From Saprospiraceae bacterium (GTDB taxonomy: Bacteria > Bacteroidota > Bacteroidia > Chitinophagales > Saprospiraceae), in contig JADZFP010000296.1 of NCBI GenBank assembly GCA_020849825.1, positions 1-34,247 on the forward strand: a DNA stretch of 34,247 nucleotides. Direction: 5' to 3'. This document shows positions 6,428 through 23,751 of this stretch, piece by piece. The notes under the pieces are model-generated. The model saw only the letters and a program-made list of their open reading frames with translations. It did not search any database and was not told the origin of the DNA. The translations under genes were made by a program, and so were the position numbers. Position 1 is the stretch's first letter. Each line of letters opens with the position of its first letter.

Positions 6428-6504
6428 GTAATTTTCAGATTCAAGACGGTTGTTTCCGGTAGGGGTCAAAGTGGTCGTTTAACGAACTAACTGATGTCGC
6501 CGAA

Positions 6505-6540
6505 AGCGTTTCCAGGACGTGGAAAGTCGCTTTTTTGCTT
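6505..6540 (+). terminator. Terminator/attenuator-like hairpin with a T-run inside the rpsJ-rplC spacer
   Basis: AGCGTTTCCA (6505-6514), loop GGACG, then TGGAAAGTCGCT with a 2-nt bulge, followed by TTTTTTGCTTTT. Confidence 0.4.
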
Positions 6541-6617
6541 TTCCAGCGCCTGTAAGCCGCCTTGTATTTGATGTAAAAAAATCACCAATCGTTCAACCAT
6601 AAAACATACGCCACAAC

Positions 6618-9162: not shown

Positions 9163-9429
9163 ATGCCGCGTTCGCTCAAAAAAGGCCCTTACGTACACCA
9201 CGCACTGACGGAAAAAGTCGCTAAGGCCAAACAAAGCAACAGAAAACAGGTGATCAAAACCTGGAGCCGCGCCTCCATGATCATCCCGGATATGGTCGGC
9301 GAAACCATCGCTGTCCACAACGGCAAAACATTCATCCCGGTGTTCGTCACCGAAAATATGGTTGGCCACAAACTCGGCGAGTTCGCGCCCACGCGCAACT
9401 TCCGCGGCCACGCCGGTAACAGAAAATAA
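9163..9429 (+). CDS. rpsS: 30S ribosomal protein S19
   Basis: 88 aa with [10 protein letters not shown]...[16 protein letters not shown]. Confidence 0.97.
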
Positions 9430-9573
9430 TGTGCTAATGTGCTAATGTGATAATGTGCTAACGTGGATAATGTGAAAATTTTTCACATCCTGCACTTGAG
9501 CAAATCATCAGCATATTACCTAATTGGCACATCAGCACACTCCTAATTAGCACATTAGCACATTAGCACATTT
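9427..9573. repeat. Octamer-repeat palindromic element #1 (TAATGTGC arms / GCACATTA arms), rpsS-rplV spacer
   Basis: The left arm has 3 GTGCTAA copies and the right arm has 3 TTAGCAC copies. The arms are reverse complements. Internal mini-hairpin GTGAAAATTTTTCAC at 9472-9486. Confidence 0.9.
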
Positions 9574-9581
9574 TTAATAAA

Positions 9582-9944
9582 ATGGAAGCCGTAGCAAAAT
9601 TGCGCAACTGCCCGATGTCGCCCCGCAAAATGCGACTGGTAGTAGATAATATCCGCGGTAAAAACGTGGTGGATGCCCTTAGCATTCTCAAATATACCAA
9701 CAAGGAAGCTGCCATGTGGCTGGAGAAGCTCGTGCTGTCGGCTGTCAACAACTGGGAACAGAAATCTGACCAGGTTGGCGCAGCAGACGACTACGAACTC
9801 TACATCAAAACCGCCCACGTGGATCCGGGTGGCATTATCTACCGCTTCCTGCCCGCTCCTCAAGGCCGCGCCTATCGCGTCCGCAAGCGCCGCAATCACG
9901 TGACGCTCGTGGTCGAAAACAAAGTTCGCCTCGACGGAGAATAA
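9582..9944 (+). CDS. rplV: 50S ribosomal protein L22
   Basis: 120 aa with [26 protein letters not shown]. Correct position. Confidence 0.96.
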
Positions 9945-9994
9945 CAATAACCCCGATCCACCCTCATTCGCACACTCACTCATTCAACAATACA

Positions 9995-10897
9995 ATGGGT
10001 CAAAAAGCAAATCCGATTGGTAACCGCCTGGGCATTATCCGCGGTTGGGATTCTAACTGGTACGCCGACAAAGACTACGGTCTGAAAGTAGTAGAGGACG
10101 AAAAAATCCGCACCTACCTCCGCGCCCGTCGCCCGAAAACGGCCACCGCCGATCCCCGCGAACGCAACAAACCGATGCAAAACGGTATCAGCCGCATCGT
10201 GATCGAGCGTACCCTCAAACGCGTTACCGTCACCATCCATACCAGCCGCCCCGGTATTATCATCGGTAAAGGCGGTAAGGAGGTTGACCTTATCAAGGAA
10301 GAGCTCAAAGTGCTCACCGGCAAGGATGTCCAAATCAACATCTTTGAAATCCGCAAGCCCGAACTCGACGCCAACATCGTAGGCGAACAAATCGCCAAAC
10401 AAATCGAAGCCCGTATCAACTTCCGTCGCGCCATCAAAGGCGCCATCCAGGGCTCGATGCGCGCCGGCGCCGAAGGTATCAAGATCCGCGTAAGCGGTCG
10501 TCTCGGCGGCGCTGAAATGAGCCGTGTTGAAGAACACAAGGAAGGCCGTACGCCGCTCCATACGTTCCGTGCCGACATTGATTATGCACTTGCCGAAGCA
10601 CAAACGGTGTATGGCAAAATCGGTATCAAAGTTTGGCTCTTCAAAGGCGAAGTGCTCCAAAAACGCGAACTCACTCCTTTCGCAGCAGCCGAAGGCACCG
10701 ATCGTGGTGACCGCGGTGGCGATCGCGGCGGAGATCGTCGCGGCGGCGGTGAACGCCGTGGCGGTGGCGAACGCGGAGATCGTGGCGAACGCGGTGAACG
10801 CGGAGATCGTCGCGGTGGCGGCGGTGGTGATCGTCGCGGTGGCGGCGGCGGTGGAGATCGCCGCGGCGGCGGTGGCGGTGGCAATCGCCGGCGCTAA
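9995..10897 (+). CDS. rpsC: 30S ribosomal protein S3 with a roughly 70-aa C-terminal RGG/GDR repeat tail
   Basis: 300 aa. [16 protein letters not shown]-like [18 protein letters not shown] and RADIDYA motifs. Tail is [63 protein letters not shown]. Confidence 0.96.
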
Positions 10898-11432: not shown

Positions 11433-11476
11433 GCCCGATCGCCCTCATTCGCTCATTCGCACACCGCTCATTCAAT

Positions 11477-11737: not shown

Positions 11738-11782
11738 TCAACCTATTCGCCCATACGCATTACCGCACATCGCACCAAAATA

Positions 11783-15717: not shown

Positions 15718-15802
15718 TTTTGTTGTTCGCTGCTGGTTGTTCGTTGCCTGCTCTTTGCACAACAAATAACCAACAACGGCCAACGCACAACGAACAACGA
15801 AC
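15718..15802. repeat. Imperfect palindromic spacer built from TTGTTCG / CGAACAA short repeats (rpsE-rpmD junction)
   Basis: The left half GTTGTTCGCTGCTGGTTGTTCGTTG is complementary to the right half CAACGCACAACGAACAACGAAC. For example, GGTTGTTCGTTG pairs with CAACGAACAAC. Confidence 0.7.
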
Positions 15803-17950: not shown

Positions 17951-18796
17951 ATGACAGGTTTGTTTTCCAGCGGAGACGATAATAAAAAAGTCTTCTATAA
18001 AACAGATGATGAAATCGAACTGATTCGTCAGTCCTGTCTGATTGTATCCAAAACGCTGGCCCACGTGGGCTCAATGCTCAAGCCGGGCGTTACGGGTAAA
18101 GAAATCGACCGGGCAGCAGAAGAGCTGATCCGGGACCACGGCGGGCGACCGGCTTTTAAAGGCTACCACGATTTCCCGGCAACGCTCTGTGTATCCTTCA
18201 ACGATATCGTAGTCCACGGTATTCCCAGCAACCGAGAGTTTCGCGAAGACGATATCGTCTCTGTCGATTGCGGAGTAGAACTAAACGGGTACTACGGCGA
18301 TGCCGCATTTACCTTTCCCTTTACGGCAGTACAGCCGGAAGTGATGGAATTGCTCAGCGTAACTTACGGATCGCTGTATAAAGGAATCGAGCAAGCCGTT
18401 GTTGGCCATCGGATCGGCGATATCGCCTTCGCCATTCAGGATTTTGCCGAACGCAAGCATGGATATGGCGTCGTGCGCGAACTGGTTGGTCACGGCGTCG
18501 GGCGCTCTCTTCACGAAGAGCCCGAAGTGCCCAATTACGGTAAACGCGGAAAAGGTATGGTCATGCGGGAAGGTTTGGTTATTGCAATCGAACCCATGGT
18601 CAATCTGGGCGTTAAAGAAGTATATCAGGCGCAAGACGGCTGGACGATCCATACCCGCGACCGCAAAGCCAGCGCACATTACGAACACTCGGTGGCCGTG
18701 CGAAAAAACAAGGCCGACGTGTTGTCCGATCATAATTATATTCTGGAGGCAGTAAAAAATAACCCTGCCTTGCAAATAATTTCACCTAAAAGTTAG
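17951..18796 (+). CDS. map: Type I methionine aminopeptidase
   Basis: 281 aa. VVHGIP...VSVDCGVELNGYYGDAAFTF...GHGVGRSLHEEP...VIAIEPM...EHSV metal-ligand pattern. Confidence 0.94.
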   Translation: MTGLFSSGDDNKKVFYKTDDEIELIRQSCLIVSKTLAHVGSMLKPGVTGKEIDRAAEELIRDHGGRPAFKGYHDFPATLCVSFNDIVVHGIPSNREFREDDIVSVDCGVELNGYYGDAAFTFPFTAVQPEVMELLSVTYGSLYKGIEQAVVGHRIGDIAFAIQDFAERKHGYGVVRELVGHGVGRSLHEEPEVPNYGKRGKGMVMREGLVIAIEPMVNLGVKEVYQAQDGWTIHTRDRKASAHYEHSVAVRKNKADVLSDHNYILEAVKNNPALQIISPKS

Positions 18797-18803
18797 AACT
18801 TTG
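18796..18803 (+). promoter_or_regulatory. Near-consensus -7 box GAACTTTG upstream of infA
   Basis: 7 of 8 matches to TAnnTTTG. Embedded in AACTTTGCAGCCC, which also occurs at the rplP candidate box. Confidence 0.2.
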
Positions 18804-18829
18804 CAGCCCAAAATTCGGAAGGGCTTTTT

Positions 18830-19103: not shown

Positions 19104-19220
19104 ATGAAGGTCAAACCGTCCATCAAGAAGCGCTCCGCAGATTGCAAAATTGTTCGCCGCAAAGGCAAACTTTATGTGATCAACAAGAAAAACCCTAAAT
19201 ACAAACAACGCCAGGGCTAA
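19104..19220 (+). CDS. rpmJ: 50S ribosomal protein L36 (single-Cys, non-zinc-ribbon type)
   Basis: 38 aa, not in the ORF track and read directly: [38 protein letters not shown]. Confidence 0.92.
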
Positions 19221-19267: not shown

Positions 19268-19645
<378 letters not shown>

Positions 19646-19649
19646 TAAT

Positions 19650-19800
19650 TAATGTGCTAATGTGCTAATGAGATAATGTGCCAATTAAGAGAGCACTTAT
19701 CTGGTTGGTATTCTTAGCCGGTTCAAATAGCCATTAGCACATTAACTAATTAGCATATTATCTAATTAGCACATTGTCAAATTAGCACATTAGCACATTA
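19650..19800. repeat. Octamer-repeat palindromic element #2, rpsM-rpsK spacer
   Basis: 2 GTGCTAA copies on the left and 4 TTAGCAC copies on the right. The central core at 19691-19723 is shared with element #3. Confidence 0.9.
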
Positions 19801-19805
19801 ACAAT

Positions 19806-20198
19806 ATGGCCAAGGGAGCTAGCAAAAAAGTTGTCAAGCGCAAGGTTAAAGTGACGCCGGAAGGCCTCGTCTATATCCACGCCAGCTTCAACAACATCAT
19901 TATCTCGATCACCAACAAGCAAGGCGAAGTGGTATCCTGGGCATCGGCCGGCAAAGCCGGATTCCGCGGCTCGAAGAAAAATACCCCTTACGCTGCACAA
20001 ATCGCTGCCAACGACGCCGCAAAGACGGCTTTCGAGGCAGGCATTCGCGCCGCCGAGGTGTTCGTTAAAGGACCGGGTTCGGGTCGCGAGGCTGCTATTC
20101 GCGCCATCGACCAGTCGGGTATCAAAGTCATGATCATCAACGACGTGACCCCCATGCCCCACAACGGTTGCCGTCCGCCCAAACGCCGCCGCGTTTAA
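19806..20198 (+). CDS. rpsK: 30S ribosomal protein S11
   Basis: 130 aa with [19 protein letters not shown]...[14 protein letters not shown]...[13 protein letters not shown]. Confidence 0.97.
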
Positions 20199-20200
20199 GG

Positions 20201-20390
20201 AATGCGCTAATTAGTTAATGTGCTAATGTGCTAATTAGATAATGTGCTAATTATGAGCGCTTATCAGGTTGGTATTCTTAGCCGGTTTAACTAATCTATT
20301 AGCACATCAATACATTAGCACATTGACTAATTAGCACATTAGCCCCATTACCGAATTAGCACATTAGCACATTATCAAATCAGCACATTA
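20201..20390. repeat. Octamer-repeat palindromic element #3, rpsK-rpsD spacer
   Basis: 3 GTGCTAA copies on the left and 5 TTAGCAC copies on the right. The core at 20255-20287 matches element #2 at 30 of 33 positions. Confidence 0.9.
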
Positions 20391-20396
20391 TCAATA

Positions 20397-21011
20397 ATGG
20401 CTCGTTATACTGGACCAACGACAAAAAAAGCCCGCACGTTCGGCGATTCAATCTACGGCTACGACAAATATTTCGAACGTCGTAAGTATCCGCCCGGACA
20501 GCATGGCCAGGCCCGCAAGAAAAAAGCGGCCTCCAACTATGCTGTGCAGCTGTCTGAAAAACAAAAAGCCAAGTACACCTACGGTGTGCTCGAGCGTCAG
20601 TTCCGCAAGACCTTTCACGACGCCACGCGCCGCCACGGCGTTACCGGCGAAGTGTTGCTCCAACTGCTGGAAGCACGCCTCGACAACACGGTGTACCGCC
20701 TCGGCATCTCCCCGACCCGGCGCGGCGCCCGTCAGTTGGTTGGCCACCGCCACGTGACCGTCAACGGTAAAGTGGTCAATATCCCGTCCTATTCGCTGAA
20801 GCCCGGCGATGTGGTGGCCGTTCGCGGTCGCTCCAAGGGTCTGGAAGTTGTCACTACCCACGTGGGCGCCAAAACCAGCGATGTGCGCAAATTCGGCTGG
20901 CTGGAATGGAACCCCGATAAAATGTCTGGTATCTTCCTGGCCTACCCGCAACGGGATCAGATTCCGGAGAAAATCAACGAACAGCTGATCGTCGAGTTGT
21001 ACTCGAAATAA
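20397..21011 (+). CDS. rpsD: 30S ribosomal protein S4
   Basis: 204 aa with [13 protein letters not shown] and an S4 RNA-binding domain ([13 protein letters not shown]...[14 protein letters not shown]). Confidence 0.97.
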
Positions 21012-21164
21012 GCCTGATGATAGCGGAAAAGGTTGGCGCTCCCGGTGGGACGTCAACCATTTCCGCGTTTTTGCGTTTAAACCCGCCGCCCAAAACTAAA
21101 CGCGACAATCCCCGAATCTTCAATTGCTTTTTCCCACCTCACTCAATTCGGAGCAATCCATACC

Positions 21165-22163
21165 ATGAGTATTCTCAATTTCCAAAAGCCCGACAAAATC
21201 CTGCTCCAAAAAGCAACGGACTTTGAAGGCACTTTTGAATTCAAACCCCTCGAACCGGGCTTCGGCCAAACGGTTGGCAACTCTCTCCGTCGCGTACTCC
21301 TTTCCTCGCTTGAAGGCTTCGCCATCAGCGCTGTACGCATCGGCGGTGTCGACCACGAGTTCGCTACGATGCGTGGCGTCGTGGAAGACGTGGTAGACAT
21401 CGTGCTCAACCTCAAACAGGTTCGAATCAAACAACTTATCCAGGACGAAAAACTCCAGCAGGAGAAAATCTACCTGACCATCAGCGGTCGGGAAGAATTC
21501 CGTGCCGGAGATATCGAAGAATTCACCAACGTGTTCAAGGTGATGAACCCGGAACTCCTGCTTTGCCGCATGGAACCCTCCGTCAACCTCGAACTGGAAC
21601 TCACCATCACCAACGGCCGCGGCTACCAGCCCGCCGATGATATGGTGCCGAAAGACGCCGCTATCGGCGTTATCCCGATCGACGCGATCTACACGCCCAT
21701 CAAAAACGTGGCGTACAAAGTGGAAAATACTCGTGTCGGCCAGCGCACCGACTACGAAAAACTCACCATCGATGTGAAAACCGACGGCACCATCCACCCG
21801 GAAGATGCCATCCGCGAAGCAAGCCGTATCCTGATCCAGCACCTTATGCTGATCACCGACGACAACATCACTTTCGATACGCCGCAAAGCCGCGAGGAAA
21901 ATGTAGTGGACGAGCACATCCTCCACATGCGCAAACTGCTCAAAACCTCGCTCGAAGATCTGGACCTCAGCGTACGCGCCTACAACTGCCTCAAGGCAGC
22001 CAAAATCAATACGCTGGCCGAACTGGTCAAATACGACACCCACGAACTGCTCAAATTCCGCAACTTCGGCAAAAAGTCGCTCGTGGAAATCGAAGAACTC
22101 CTCCAGGAAAAAGGCCTCACTTTCGGCATGGACCTGGCGAAATACAAACTGGACGAAGAGTAA
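21165..22163 (+). CDS. rpoA: DNA-directed RNA polymerase subunit alpha
   Basis: 332 aa with PLEPGFGQTVGNSLRRVLLSSLEG. C-terminal domain has LDLSVRAYNCLKAAKINTLAELV. Confidence 0.97.
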   Translation: MSILNFQKPDKILLQKATDFEGTFEFKPLEPGFGQTVGNSLRRVLLSSLEGFAISAVRIGGVDHEFATMRGVVEDVVDIVLNLKQVRIKQLIQDEKLQQEKIYLTISGREEFRAGDIEEFTNVFKVMNPELLLCRMEPSVNLELELTITNGRGYQPADDMVPKDAAIGVIPIDAIYTPIKNVAYKVENTRVGQRTDYEKLTIDVKTDGTIHPEDAIREASRILIQHLMLITDDNITFDTPQSREENVVDEHILHMRKLLKTSLEDLDLSVRAYNCLKAAKINTLAELVKYDTHELLKFRNFGKKSLVEIEELLQEKGLTFGMDLAKYKLDEE

Positions 22164-22164
22164 G

Positions 22165-22316
22165 TTAATGTGCTAATTAGTTAATGTGCTAATGTGCTAA
22201 TGACAAGGTTGTGTGCTATTTTTTCGAAACATGAGAAAAGCACTCAGCGCCCCGGAAAAGTCCACATCCGCCCATTAGCACATTGGCATATTAACCAATT
22301 AGCACATTAACACACA
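22165..22316. repeat. Octamer-repeat palindromic element #4, rpoA-rplQ spacer
   Basis: 3 GTGCTAA copies on the left and 2 TTAGCAC copies on the right. It has its own core, including the hairpin GTGCTATTTTTTC...GAGAAAAGCAC. Confidence 0.85.
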
Positions 22317-22394
22317 TTTTTTAACAAGTGCAGTAACCGTCGAGCGTCTTCAAGGGCTTGCCCCGGTGCTGCCACCTAAACTTAGGTACATCTC

Positions 22395-23114
22395 ATGCGA
22401 CACGGAGATAAAGTAAACAACCTCGGACGCACCGCGTCCCACCGCCGCGCCCTGCTGGCCAACCTGGCAAACGCCCTCATCGAACACAAACGCATCAACA
22501 CCACCCTGGCCAAGGCCAAAGCCCTGCGCCGCTACGTGGAGCCTCTGGTGACCAAAGCCAAAGACAATACCACCCACTCCCGCCGCGTGGTATTCAGCTA
22601 CCTGCAGAACAAAGACGCCGTCAAGGAACTGTTCAGCACCGTTGCCGCCAAAATCGGCGACCGCCCGGGCGGTTACGTTCGCATCATCAAACTCGGCTTC
22701 CGCCGGGGCGACGGCGCCGAAGTAGCCATGATCGAGTTTGTGGATTTCAACGAAACCTACAACCCGAAAGCCGGTAAAGAAGCCACGAAGAAGAAAACCC
22801 GTCGCGGCAACAAAAAGCCCACGGAATCCAAAGTCAGCGCCAAAGTAACCGAAGCCAAAGCCGCCGCTGCCGCTGCGCCGGTCGTGGAGGAAGAAGTAGC
22901 CCCGGTCGTTGAAGAAACCGTGGCCGCTATCGAGGAAACGCCTGTTGTGGAAGAAACGGTTGCTGCTGTTGAAGAAACCGCACCCGTTGTAGAAGAAACC
23001 GTAGCCGCCGTGGAAGAAACGGTTGCTGCTGTTGAAGAAGCGCCCGCCGCCGAGCCCGAGGCCCCCGCTGCCGAAGAAACGACGGAAGAAGAAAAGAAAG
23101 ACGAAGAAGCCTGA
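22395..23114 (+). CDS. rplQ: 50S ribosomal protein L17 with a roughly 115-aa Lys-rich then acidic Ala/Val/Glu/Thr repeat tail
   Basis: 239 aa. [21 protein letters not shown] is the canonical start. The tail carries repeated [12 protein letters not shown] units. Confidence 0.95.
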
Positions 23115-23148
23115 TTTCCCGGGTCAATCGATTTCAAGATACCATGCG

Positions 23149-23187
23149 AGAGCCGCTCCGAGTGTTCGGGGCGGCTCTTGTTGTTTG
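23149..23187 (+). terminator. Rho-independent terminator closing the ribosomal-protein cluster
   Basis: Stem AGAGCCGCTCCG / CGGGGCGGCTCT (13 bp including one G-U pair) with a 6-nt loop, then TTGTTGTTT. Confidence 0.75.
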
Positions 23188-23204
23188 GTGGACTGGAAAG
23201 GAGC

Positions 23205-23728
23205 GGGATGGGAACGCGGATGACGCGGATTTGGGCGGATGGACACGGATTTTTTACCCGCGCAGCGGTGGTGTTTTTGGACAGGATGAACAAGATTTAC
23301 AGGATCGGACAGGATTTTTTTAGGGAAAGAAGCAACACCCACCATGCCGGCGCAGCCGGCATTTATCCTGTTAATCTTGTTGATCCTGTCTAAAAAAACA
23401 GTTTGGGGTTGGACAGGATGAACAAGATTTACAGGATCTGACAGGATTTTTTTAGGAAAGAAGCAGCACCCGCCATGCCGGCGCAGCCGGCATTTATCCT
23501 GTTAATCTTGTTGATCCTGTCTAAAAAAACAGTTTGGGGTTGGACAGGATGAACAAGATTTACAGGATTGGACAGGATTTTTTTAGGAAAGAAGCAACAC
23601 CCGCCATGCCGGCGCAGCCGGCATCTATCCTGTTTATCGTGTTTATCCTGTCAAAAAAGCACCCGCGCAGCGGGTAAAAAAAATCCGTGTCCATCCGCCC
23701 CAATCCGCGTCATCCGCGTTCCCATCCC
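23205..23728. repeat. Outer inverted repeat (arms 23205-23261 and 23670-23728) enclosing a tandem hairpin array
   Basis: The reverse complement of the left arm equals the right arm except for one substitution and an A-run of 6 versus 8. A 13-nt direct repeat ACCCGCGCAGCGG lies at 23256-23268 and 23661-23673. Confidence 0.9.
23279..23652. repeat. Three tandem units of about 131 nt (starts 23279, 23411, 23542), each an internal hairpin with a GCCGGCGCAGCCGGC apex
   Basis: Units are near-identical on direct reading. The unit arms GGACAGGATGAACAAGATTTACAGGAT and ATCCTGTTAATCTTGTTGATCCTGTC are reverse complements with 2 mismatches. Confidence 0.9.
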
Positions 23729-23751
23729 CCCTACGTCCTCCGCAAGGGCAA

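Follow-up and report, generated by a model that had tools for sequence, protein, structure and literature searches.

Octamer-repeat palindromes in the ribosomal-protein operon of a Saprospiraceae bacterium as probable members of a simple-sequence-repeat family of Bacteroidota

The window analyzed here is a stretch of 34,247 nucleotides (nt) from a Saprospiraceae bacterium (assembly GCA_020849825.1, contig JADZFP010000296.1, positions 1 to 34,247, forward strand) that carries a ribosomal-protein operon. The spacer between rpsS (S19; 9163-9429, + strand) and rplV (L22; 9582-9944, + strand) is filled by a palindrome of approximately 150 bases at positions 9427-9573, built from TAATGTGC/GCACATTA octamers. 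Inverted-repeat and tandem-repeat finders detected four such palindromes in the window, located in the rpsS-rplV, rpsM-rpsK, rpsK-rpsD, and rpoA-rplQ spacers (copies 1 to 4), and NCBIfam confirmed the flanking genes as those for S19, L22, S13, S11, S4, RpoA, and L17. Exact occurrences of TAATGTGC on both strands of the window numbered 23, compared with 0.95 expected, and none of the shuffled sequences reached this count. As an earlier first-pass annotation of this DNA had stated, the four copies all lie in the operon. The sole octamer outside them in the window is a single copy at 18674-18681 within the map gene.

The sequence of copy 1, including its central mini-hairpin, was exactly as first described. 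The left arm (9427-9474) comprises about six G/U-rich units, TAATGTGC and variants of it, and reads TAATGTGC TAATGTGC TAATGTGA TAATGTGC TAACGTGG, the rpsS stop codon (TAA, 9427-9429) being its first TAA. The arms are separated by a variable core (9475-9545), which includes most of the mini-hairpin GTGAAAATTTTTCAC (9472-9486; its first 3 nt are shared with the left arm). The right arm (9546-9573) is G-poor and AUG-free, consists of three ATTAGCAC units, and ends at approximately 9573, 9 nt 5' of the rplV ATG (9582). Copy 2 (19649-19801) is divided into a left arm (19650-19687), a core (approximately 19688-19732) containing GGTTGGTATTCTTAGCCGGTT, and a right arm (19733-19801) that stops 5 nt short of the ATG. 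Copy 3 occupies 20201-20393, of which the repeat finders recovered 20201-20390, and copy 4 lies directly 3' of the rpoA stop codon at 22164-22314 (22164-22311 according to the same finders), with a core that terminates in GTCCACATCCGCCC, joined to the right arm; all copies were delimited on the + strand. The left arm began 0 to 4 nt past the stop codon in all four copies, and the distance from right arm to ATG was 5 to 9 nt in copies 1 to 3 and 80 nt in copy 4. Tandem Repeats Finder (TRF) reported period-8 arrays of 3.4 to 11.5 copies in every element, a pattern characteristic of long simple-sequence repeats (units of 5 to 11 nt). The arms are 30 to 46 nt long and 73 to 96% complementary and thus provide terminal inverted repeats, and they are composed of tandem 8-mers with neither an internal dyad nor a GTAG or CGTC head.

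The octamer extends far beyond this operon. One genome per species (596 Gb) was scanned for a double octamer, the 18-mer ATTAGCACATTAGCACAT, which was found in at least 118 stretches of species-representative genomes, compared with approximately 17 expected by chance according to our own calculation. Among the matches listed, nearly all titled records were Bacteroidota, and the orders and families represented were Bacteroidales, Chitinophagales, Sphingobacteriales, Flavobacteriales, Saprospiraceae, Cytophagales, and Prolixibacteraceae. Carriers include a complete chromosome (OY760498.1; Prolixibacteraceae, L072) and two cultured strains, Flaviaesturariibacter amylovorans JCM 17919 (L068) and Alloprevotella rava DSM 22548 (L080). 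ATTAGCACATTAGCACAT was also found in 32 stretches of viral-contig DNA. The genomes were viewed as 8- to 20-kb pieces with genes taken from simple open reading frame (ORF) calls, by which 124 of 125 arrays were intergenic, the extragenic location typical of repetitive extragenic palindromic (REP) sequences and bacterial interspersed mosaic elements (BIMEs). Most loci held arrays in a single orientation, and a minority had an inverted partner. The units kept a period of 8, with related units ATCAGCAC, ATTGGCAC, ATTATCAC, and ATTAACCC, and CACATT was the most constant portion. In 864 kb of Bacteroidota array loci, TRF found period 8 to be commonest (250 regions), followed by period 7 (133 regions); periods of 16 and 24 also occurred. 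The genes flanking the arrays belonged to 66 and 79 different Pfam families on the two counts (approximately 145), and Pfam assignments in these pieces indicated no functional enrichment and no prominent transposase family among them.

The same design was present in the atp operon of a conspecific metagenome-assembled genome (MAG; L067), in which the atpH-atpA spacer, between genes verified by NCBIfam, runs from the stop codon through (TAATGTGC)n, a core, and (GCACATTA)n to AACAAT and the ATG; atpF, too, is preceded by a right-arm array. Given this atp copy and the unrelated Pfam families at array loci across the phylum, the suggestion that copies might be restricted to translation-related operons did not hold. 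Searches of the open-access literature for the octamer repeat string found no papers, and those directed at 8-bp or octamer repeats of Bacteroidetes gave no specific result.

Placement of the arrays was strand specific. Arrays in the G-rich, TAA-bearing TAATGTGC orientation lie at stop codons or mostly within approximately 10 nt after them, and arrays in the G-poor, AUG-free GCACATTA orientation lie 5' of start codons. Relative to transcription, orientations were divided approximately 50:50, that is, there was no strand preference. When arrays were read as ATTAGCAC, the median gap to the next gene was 20.5 nt, compared with 107 nt on the other side (72 versus 23 arrays; binomial p = 5e-7). This gap was 6 to 9 nt if the next neighbour was a gene end, the array then being TAATGTGC in the sense of that gene, and approximately 50 nt if it was a gene start. 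Divergent spacers were under-represented among those with arrays (9 divergent versus 21 convergent). In 19 of 55 cases, the TAA or TGA of the first unit served as the stop codon, and most other arrays began within approximately 10 nt of the stop codon. What was first noted at rpsS, namely that translation stops at the initial TAA of the leading octamer, therefore applies to the octamer family in general. In the viral contigs the rule was followed more tightly than in the genomes (33 of 35 cases; gaps of 3 nt versus 110 nt), and no arrays were found inside ORFs. Eleven of the 42 start-proximal arrays sit upstream of a -7 promoter box, so that they are probably outside the leader of that gene. 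The first-pass annotation had proposed that copies scattered randomly through intergenic DNA would mark an ordinary REP or MITE (miniature inverted-repeat transposable element). Copies are indeed spread through intergenic DNA, as in that class, but their scatter is not random, being tied to stop and start codons.

When a stop-associated and a start-associated array of the same unit lie between co-oriented genes, the spacer automatically becomes palindromic. In Bacteroidetes, AUG is under-represented near start codons and secondary structure tunes initiation (PMC6847099). Together with the role of structure in initiation that proceeds without a Shine-Dalgarno sequence, this suggests that only the AUG-free, G-poor orientation would be tolerated near starts. 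Similarity to DnaA boxes, an IHF-like site, polar octamers of the Chi/KOPS type, DNA-uptake sequences, PUF-type 8-nt RNA readers, and Rho utilisation sites were considered as further readings and set aside; Rho utilisation sites would fit the array orientation observed at stop codons poorly.

Several observations concern the viral contigs and the few matches outside the phylum. Related viral contigs in IMG/VR (L126-L157), notably those of sample 3300045988, are densely packed with arrays, which frequently show a 16-nt higher-order period (CACATTAGCACATTCC) and which reach start codons or abut stop codons. Some of these arrays are short-loop palindromes directly 5' of an ATG (e.g., L127, approximately 2390-2500). 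A few double-octamer matches were also found in MAGs with labels outside Bacteroidota, namely L034, L043 (Candidatus Didemnitutus), L077 (Polynucleobacter), and L054 (Nitrososphaerales). The match in L034 is a long array of more than 17 units, that in L077 is a palindrome, and that in L054 resembles an isolated chance match. These matches outside Bacteroidota may be mis-binned Bacteroidota contigs, the result of horizontal transfer, or genuine occurrences.

Comparison of close relatives showed that the arrays gain and lose 8-nt units and that central cores are swapped between loci and strains. Among contigs with an identical L22 and 99.3 to 99.5% nucleotide identity to the window, the S19-L22 spacer was 152 or 160 nt long, most conspecific contigs having one additional right-arm unit (ATTAGCAT, +8 nt) in copy 1. 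The copy 1 core was identical in the 99%-identical contigs and unrelated in a MAG contig of 97 to 98% identity (L159) that retains the arms; L159 and L067 are from the same NCBI assembly (GCA_016787345.1), and the L067 record is titled 'Saprospiraceae bacterium MAG-363'. Conspecific alleles of the S11-S4 spacer (copy 3) measured 198, 206 (+8), and 174 (-24) nt among contigs encoding identical proteins, and a core swap was seen here as well. Such variation in whole-unit copy number between close relatives is typical of long simple-sequence repeats, and at both spacers the unit number changed independently in the left and right arms.

In a sister species (contigs encoding an identical S19; 84 to 92% nucleotide identity), the S19-L22 spacer is only 19 nt long, reading AAAATAAT then TAGCACATTTTT, and still holds one octamer-like unit. 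Comparison of the filled with this near-empty site leaves a 2-nt (AT) ambiguity at the junction. The other three spacers of the sister species are shorter than those of the window and have a TAATGTG unit at the stop codon or within approximately 20 nt of it, together with one to three ATTAGCAC units 5' of the ATG, more distant at rpoA-L17. The difference may reflect either a gain in the window or a loss in the sister species.

When every core was compared by BLAST with the full set of retrieved loci, copies 2 and 3 proved to share a 33-nt core (94% identity); cores were otherwise mostly unique or unrelated, and the core of copies 2 and 3 had no matches in Joint Genome Institute (JGI) metagenomes. 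A 14-nt sub-terminal motif, GTCCACNNCCGCCC, adjoins a C-rich array at three loci, namely rpoA-L17, atpH-atpA (L067), and S11-S4 (L177), and this junction occurs in both orientations relative to transcription, being inverted in the S11-S4 element of L177. The allelic indels, core swaps, and shared cores and motif point to replication slippage and to copying of array-core-array cassettes at the DNA level. In L177 (JGI 3300010356, 1238-1648), whose S11-S4 core differs, rpsD is followed by a minus-strand ORF where rpoA is expected, which may reflect either rearrangement at the repeat or a chimeric assembly. Contigs with the L22 of this species are almost all shorter than 5 kb (32 of 38 blocks), and many of the contigs with the sister-species S19 exceed 50 kb; the short contigs suggest that the repeats may fragment short-read assemblies.

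Spacers elsewhere in the operon, and in the operons of other genera, were also examined. In four Saprospiraceae/Lewinellaceae outgroups (L22 identity of 84 to 91%), the S19-L22 spacer measured 75, 106, 112, and 102 nt, and three of the four spacers hold hairpins of -25 to -32 kcal/mol made from other short repeats. The corresponding Ferruginibacter spacer (95 nt) has a hairpin from yet another unit, and octamer palindromes are found in that genus at L4-L23 and L2-S19, and in Flaviaesturariibacter at rpoA-L17. The description of copy 1 as an insertion into a conserved and normally tiny junction was thus not borne out. The sister-species comparison proposed with it did reveal a 19-nt spacer, but the long outgroup spacers indicate that a long S19-L22 spacer is the norm in the family and that 19 nt is the exception. 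Many outgroup operon spacers follow the order stop codon, G/U-rich repeat arm, loop, C/A-rich repeat arm, A-rich stretch, AUG, with units that vary by junction (GTTGTTC/GAACAAC, GGTTAT/ATAACC, GATTTAG/CTAAATC, AATGTG/CACATT). Among 54 operon spacers of at least 60 nt, 22 had a fold z score below -3, and 30 had more G than C in the left half together with more C than G in the right half, the opposite polarity being seen in 1. Within the window, repeat finding and folding located a hairpin with a GTTGTTC-type left arm and a GAACAAC-type right arm in the S5-L30 spacer (15718-15802, + strand), and two outgroups (L178, L181) have a comparable hairpin at this junction. The L16-L29 spacer contains a G-poor period-8 array of the CTCATTCG type (11433-11476, + strand) directly before the ATG and no left arm, and similar partnerless G-poor arrays lie at L22-S3 (9945-9994) and L29-S17 (11738-11782).

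The arms of copy 1 are reverse complementary, as first noted, so that the transcript can form a long hairpin tolerant of slipped registers. The RNA fold of 9420-9590 had a predicted free energy of -55.6 kcal/mol (z = -7.0 relative to dinucleotide shuffles), and all four octamer spacers had z scores of approximately -9 relative to mononucleotide shuffles. The antisense strand nevertheless folded better than the sense strand in 37 of the 54 operon spacers (mean difference of 3.3 kcal/mol; Wilcoxon p = 0.0025), and the octamer elements themselves also folded better in antisense. At arm mismatches, right-arm units vary from U to C yet stay free of G. Maintenance at the mRNA level would favour the sense strand through G-U wobble pairing; as the opposite was observed, the stems do not appear to be tuned as mRNA structures. 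From these folds, we conclude that the palindromes would arise as DNA palindromes and would then be eroded by the C-over-G composition of the sense strand. A conserved cis-regulatory mRNA hairpin was rejected on the grounds that antisense folds were stronger and that the arms vary independently.

With the element present, the predicted opening energy of the rpsK start region increased from 5.7 to 16.8 kcal/mol. The effect was marginal for the rplV start region (-12 to +6; 4.8 versus 4.5 kcal/mol) and likewise for rpsD, and consistent occlusion of start regions was therefore rejected, being strong for rpsK only. No Rfam family matched anywhere in the window at the gathering score, and a permissive Rfam search of 19600-22420 returned just sub-threshold hairpins resembling microRNA precursors on both strands; given the absence of matches at gathering thresholds, no known RNA family applies. 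Intrinsic terminators were also rejected, as the elements were not flagged by the terminator scan and the overall terminator count equalled the shuffle expectation. Runs of five to six U residues follow copies 1 and 4, but long loops and an AU-rich composition characterize the stems, and the U5 run also occurs in the sister species, where there is no stem.

The nearest published counterparts of the placement rule are repeated GGGGA(C/T)T heptamers in Xanthomonas and Nostoc/Anabaena, which form intergenic tandem arrays that are over-represented in spacers of co-oriented genes and under-represented in those of divergent genes (Rehm et al. 2015, PMC4692102). In their case the G-rich strand is the sense strand within 50 bp of a stop codon or overlapping it, and the C-rich strand is the sense strand just 5' of ORFs (PMC4692102). 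The octamer arrays are likewise intergenic, favour co-oriented over divergent spacers, and show the same orientation-dependent stop/start grammar as measured here. They differ in a unit of 8 nt that is unable to form G-quadruplexes, in a unit common to a whole phylum and its phages instead of a few genera, and in their frequent occurrence as inverted pairs whose 20- to 45-bp stems bridge stop and start codons. Repeats with 5- to 11-nt units have been termed long simple sequence repeats (Mrazek et al. 2007, as cited in PMC4679880). The same paper describes TAACTGA heptamer direct repeats in Beggiatoaceae, cyanobacteria, and a few Bacteroidetes (MacGregor 2015, PMC4679880). These lie in forward orientation beside start codons, with one reverse-orientation set right after a stop codon in a Bacteroidetes genome, include one indirect repeat among 169 direct sets, and have a patchy phylogenetic distribution attributed to horizontal transfer. 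Octamers and TAACTGA repeats are both short intergenic direct repeats a few nucleotides 5' of starts, and the octamer differs in unit sequence and length; hairpin-forming inverted pairs of TAACTGA arrays were not encountered in the passages considered.

REP sequences and BIMEs of enterobacteria and pseudomonads (including REPINs), as characterized in part in PMC2817692 and PMC3733652, are abundant extragenic palindromic repeats in 3' untranslated regions and operon spacers, occur singly or as inverted pairs that form transcript hairpins, and vary among strains. The octamer elements resemble them in all of these respects. A REP unit is an imperfect palindrome of 20 to 40 nt with a conserved GTAG or CGTC head and is linked to a REP-associated tyrosine transposase (RAYT), whereas the octamer arms are tandem 8-mers without an internal palindrome, and within the 8- to 20-kb pieces viewed no association with a RAYT was seen. 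The element thus behaves like a REP or BIME and belongs to the class of long simple-sequence repeats, but it lacks defining features of REP units proper (an internal palindrome of 20 to 40 nt and a conserved head), of classical MITEs (a conserved core and a clear target duplication), and of conserved cis-regulatory RNAs. New here is a phylum-wide octamer family that follows the published heptamer grammar without G-quadruplex potential and is frequently paired into long hairpins in essential operons.

On this basis we consider it probable, at approximately 0.6, that the palindrome is a REP/BIME-like simple-sequence-repeat element that was generated at the DNA level and is tolerated in the operon, rather than a dedicated ribosomal control element. 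It would represent an inverted pair of 8-nt repeat arrays (unit ATTAGCAC, reverse complement GTGCTAAT) of a kind common in intergenic DNA of Bacteroidota and their phages. The presence of both array types in one co-oriented spacer would yield reverse-complementary arms, and a long AU-rich hairpin could form in the polycistronic mRNA, its base at the stop codon and the start codon a few nucleotides further on. The two arms likely arise together in DNA, either by inverted duplication or by copying of an array-core-array cassette with the arrays serving as homology arms, and replication slippage may afterwards resize the arrays. Tolerance in an essential operon could be explained if the element loops out and keeps stop and start near each other, and if the start-side arm, having no G-rich structure and no false AUGs, does not disturb a phylum that initiates without Shine-Dalgarno pairing. 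Effects on mRNA processing, stability, or translational coupling would then be secondary and dependent on the copy, and the element would not be a conserved regulatory RNA. Of the roles first proposed, a REP/MITE-like element therefore fits best, and the regulatory ones are weakened by the strand folds, unit indels, and core swaps. The statement that these roles could not be distinguished from sequence was too cautious, as unit indels, core swaps, the lack of a sense-fold advantage, and the lack of a strand preference do discriminate among them.

Several observations weigh against this reading. Matched-arm hairpins recur at orthologous junctions in several genera despite sequence turnover, a pattern that would also be expected from selection for intercistronic structure. 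All six known elements of this species lie in highly expressed polycistronic operons (ribosomal-protein and atp), in a small sample that includes one locus found via the repeat itself. One and the same octamer has been retained throughout the phylum and in its phages, and G-rich arrays lie close against stop codons in convergent spacers as well, where avoidance of AUG is irrelevant. Slippage and AUG avoidance explain neither the conservation of the octamer nor this tight placement, and a conserved trans-acting factor or a role in termination is therefore possible. Overall, we put the chance of a functional role, be it translational coupling, a termination context, or a conserved binder, at about one in five.

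One functional explanation is a selected intercistronic mRNA hairpin that acts in translational coupling, the terminating ribosome melting the stem base and freeing the next start codon, or as a processing or stability site (RNase III cleavage or an exonuclease block) that sets the ratios of ribosomal proteins or ATP-synthase subunits. The tight fit of the arms to stop codons (all four left arms) and start codons (three right arms), the predicted rise in opening energy at rpsK, and the recurrence of the design at atpH-atpA are what such a hairpin would produce, and the matched-repeat hairpins at many operon junctions of four other genera and Ferruginibacter, with 22 of 54 spacers below z = -3, extend the pattern. 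However, a selected mRNA structure should not fold systematically more weakly in the sense than in the antisense strand, nor should its arms change units independently and its cores be swapped within one species. The sister species gets by with a 19-nt spacer, start accessibility is hardly altered at rplV and rpsD, most arrays in the phylum lack an inverted partner, and roughly one in four start-proximal arrays is positioned upstream of a promoter -7 box. We therefore regard this hairpin as rather unlikely. Still more doubtful is a reading in which the arrays are the functional signals and the palindrome is a by-product, either as a DNA- or RNA-binding array for a conserved Bacteroidota factor or as an unstructured, G-poor (CACAUUNN)n leader for Shine-Dalgarno-independent initiation. 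Retention of the octamer across orders and phages, the particular constancy of CACATT, the extension of phage-contig arrays right to the ATG, and the preference of Bacteroidetes initiation for unstructured, AUG-depleted leaders (PMC6847099) would suit such signals. They sit poorly with the half of the arrays that are oppositely oriented at gene ends, with the 11 of 42 start-proximal arrays probably outside the leader, with unit numbers and presence that vary among strains without obvious constraint, and with the many other unit sequences that occupy the same positions.

A more elaborate variant, which we consider improbable, is that the octamer marks gene boundaries throughout the phylum and is recognized by the translation machinery or by a conserved factor. 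Every stop-proximal unit, UAAUGUGC, contains a UAA that overlaps an AUG (UAAUG), so that an array strings together two-codon mini-ORFs (AUG-UGC-UAA) that overlap, with a -1 shift from each to the next; the stop/start overlap persists in the common variant UGAUGUGC. A terminating ribosome might start again at one unit of the left arm after another and open the stem as it goes, until it reached the right arm, which is AUG-free and G-poor and would let it land for the next cistron independently of Shine-Dalgarno pairing. If true, such a relay would be long-range translational coupling from a repeat and would account for arrays that start exactly at stop codons and for the conservation of the unit in both hosts and phages. 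Least probable of all is a classical MITE, that is, a nonautonomous transposon with terminal inverted repeats that is mobilised into a specific target by a transposase encoded elsewhere. The palindromic form with long terminal inverted arms, the filled and nearly empty sites in related genomes, the sub-terminal motif at three loci in both orientations, and the core common to copies 2 and 3 are all MITE-like. Correia elements of Neisseria, which are MITEs of approximately 100 to 200 nt, are similarly intergenic, have terminal inverted repeats, are co-transcribed, and are able to form long hairpins, and the octamer elements resemble them in these respects and in a presence that varies between relatives. 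Correia elements have a conserved internal sequence, defined terminal repeats, and a TA target duplication. The octamer elements, in contrast, have cores that are unrelated save for the 33 nt common to copies 2 and 3 and the 14-nt motif, and slippage-variable arms of tandem 8-mers. No unambiguous target-site duplication was evident, the 2-nt (AT) ambiguity being measured against an 'empty' site that already has one unit. JGI metagenomes contained no match to the core of copies 2 and 3, most arrays in the phylum are single-orientation, and no transposase family is prominent among the flanking genes.

Several side observations concern other parts of the window. The approximately 80 nt directly 5' of the rplQ ATG (22316-22394; AACAAGTGCAGTAACCGTCGAGCGTC...CCACCTAAACTTAGGTACATCTC) are near-invariant between the window and the sister species, and the adjacent octamer element is not; this segment, which has no Rfam match, is a candidate L17 leader or autoregulatory RNA. 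Downstream of rplQ (23205-23730) lies a different, nested palindromic repeat, in which a 131-nt unit recurs 2.9 times with 95% identity. Inverted ACAGGAT-type heptamer arrays on either side of a GC hairpin (CATGCCGGCGCAGCCGGCAT) make up each unit, and the block is enclosed by an outer inverted repeat of GCGGAT-type units (approximately 23205-23255 and 23680-23730). The region at 22978-23746 in the window (approximately 770 nt) corresponds to approximately 340 nt in the sister species (L005). In the S3-L16 (10898-11012) and Map-IF1 (18797-18829) spacers, a Bacteroidota-type -7 motif, TAnnTTTG, is followed by CAGCC (TAACTTTGCAGCC), and outgroups L178-L181 have an equivalent TACATTTGCAGCC in S3-L16. 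These motifs suggest internal promoters before rplP and infA. The rpsJ-rplC (S10-L3) spacers of three genera (window, 6428-6617; L178, 6777-7009; L180, 6772-6965) are 190 to 233 nt long and fold at -47 to -59 kcal/mol (z of -1 to -3), and could represent a conserved leader or attenuator unrelated to the repeats. Within coding regions, an in-frame tandem repeat at 10704-10890 encodes a GGR/RGG-type C-terminal extension of S3, and a repetitive C-terminal extension of L17 is encoded at 22908-23108, which matched the NCBIfam 'sunset domain variant' of L17 below the curated cut-off. The apparent IF1-S13 spacer (19104-19220) is not a long non-coding region and houses the 38-codon rpmJ gene (L36), which is shorter than the ORF cut-off used.

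If the reading as a REP/BIME-like repeat is true, the palindromes of this operon are the visible tip of a repeat family at gene boundaries across Bacteroidota and their phages that is undescribed or not readily findable. As the octamer cannot form G-quadruplexes, the stop/start grammar that it shares with the published heptamers cannot depend on such structures. More likely, the grammar reflects general constraints at gene ends, such as a preferred stop context, avoidance of AUG, and G-poor leaders in the absence of Shine-Dalgarno pairing. Genes can take their stop codons from the arrays, which could also be misannotated as regulatory RNAs or MITEs. The arrays further place naturally variable intercistronic hairpins of 20 to 45 bp in essential operons and would thereby offer a natural experiment on how Bacteroidota ribosomes handle mRNA structure and coupling.

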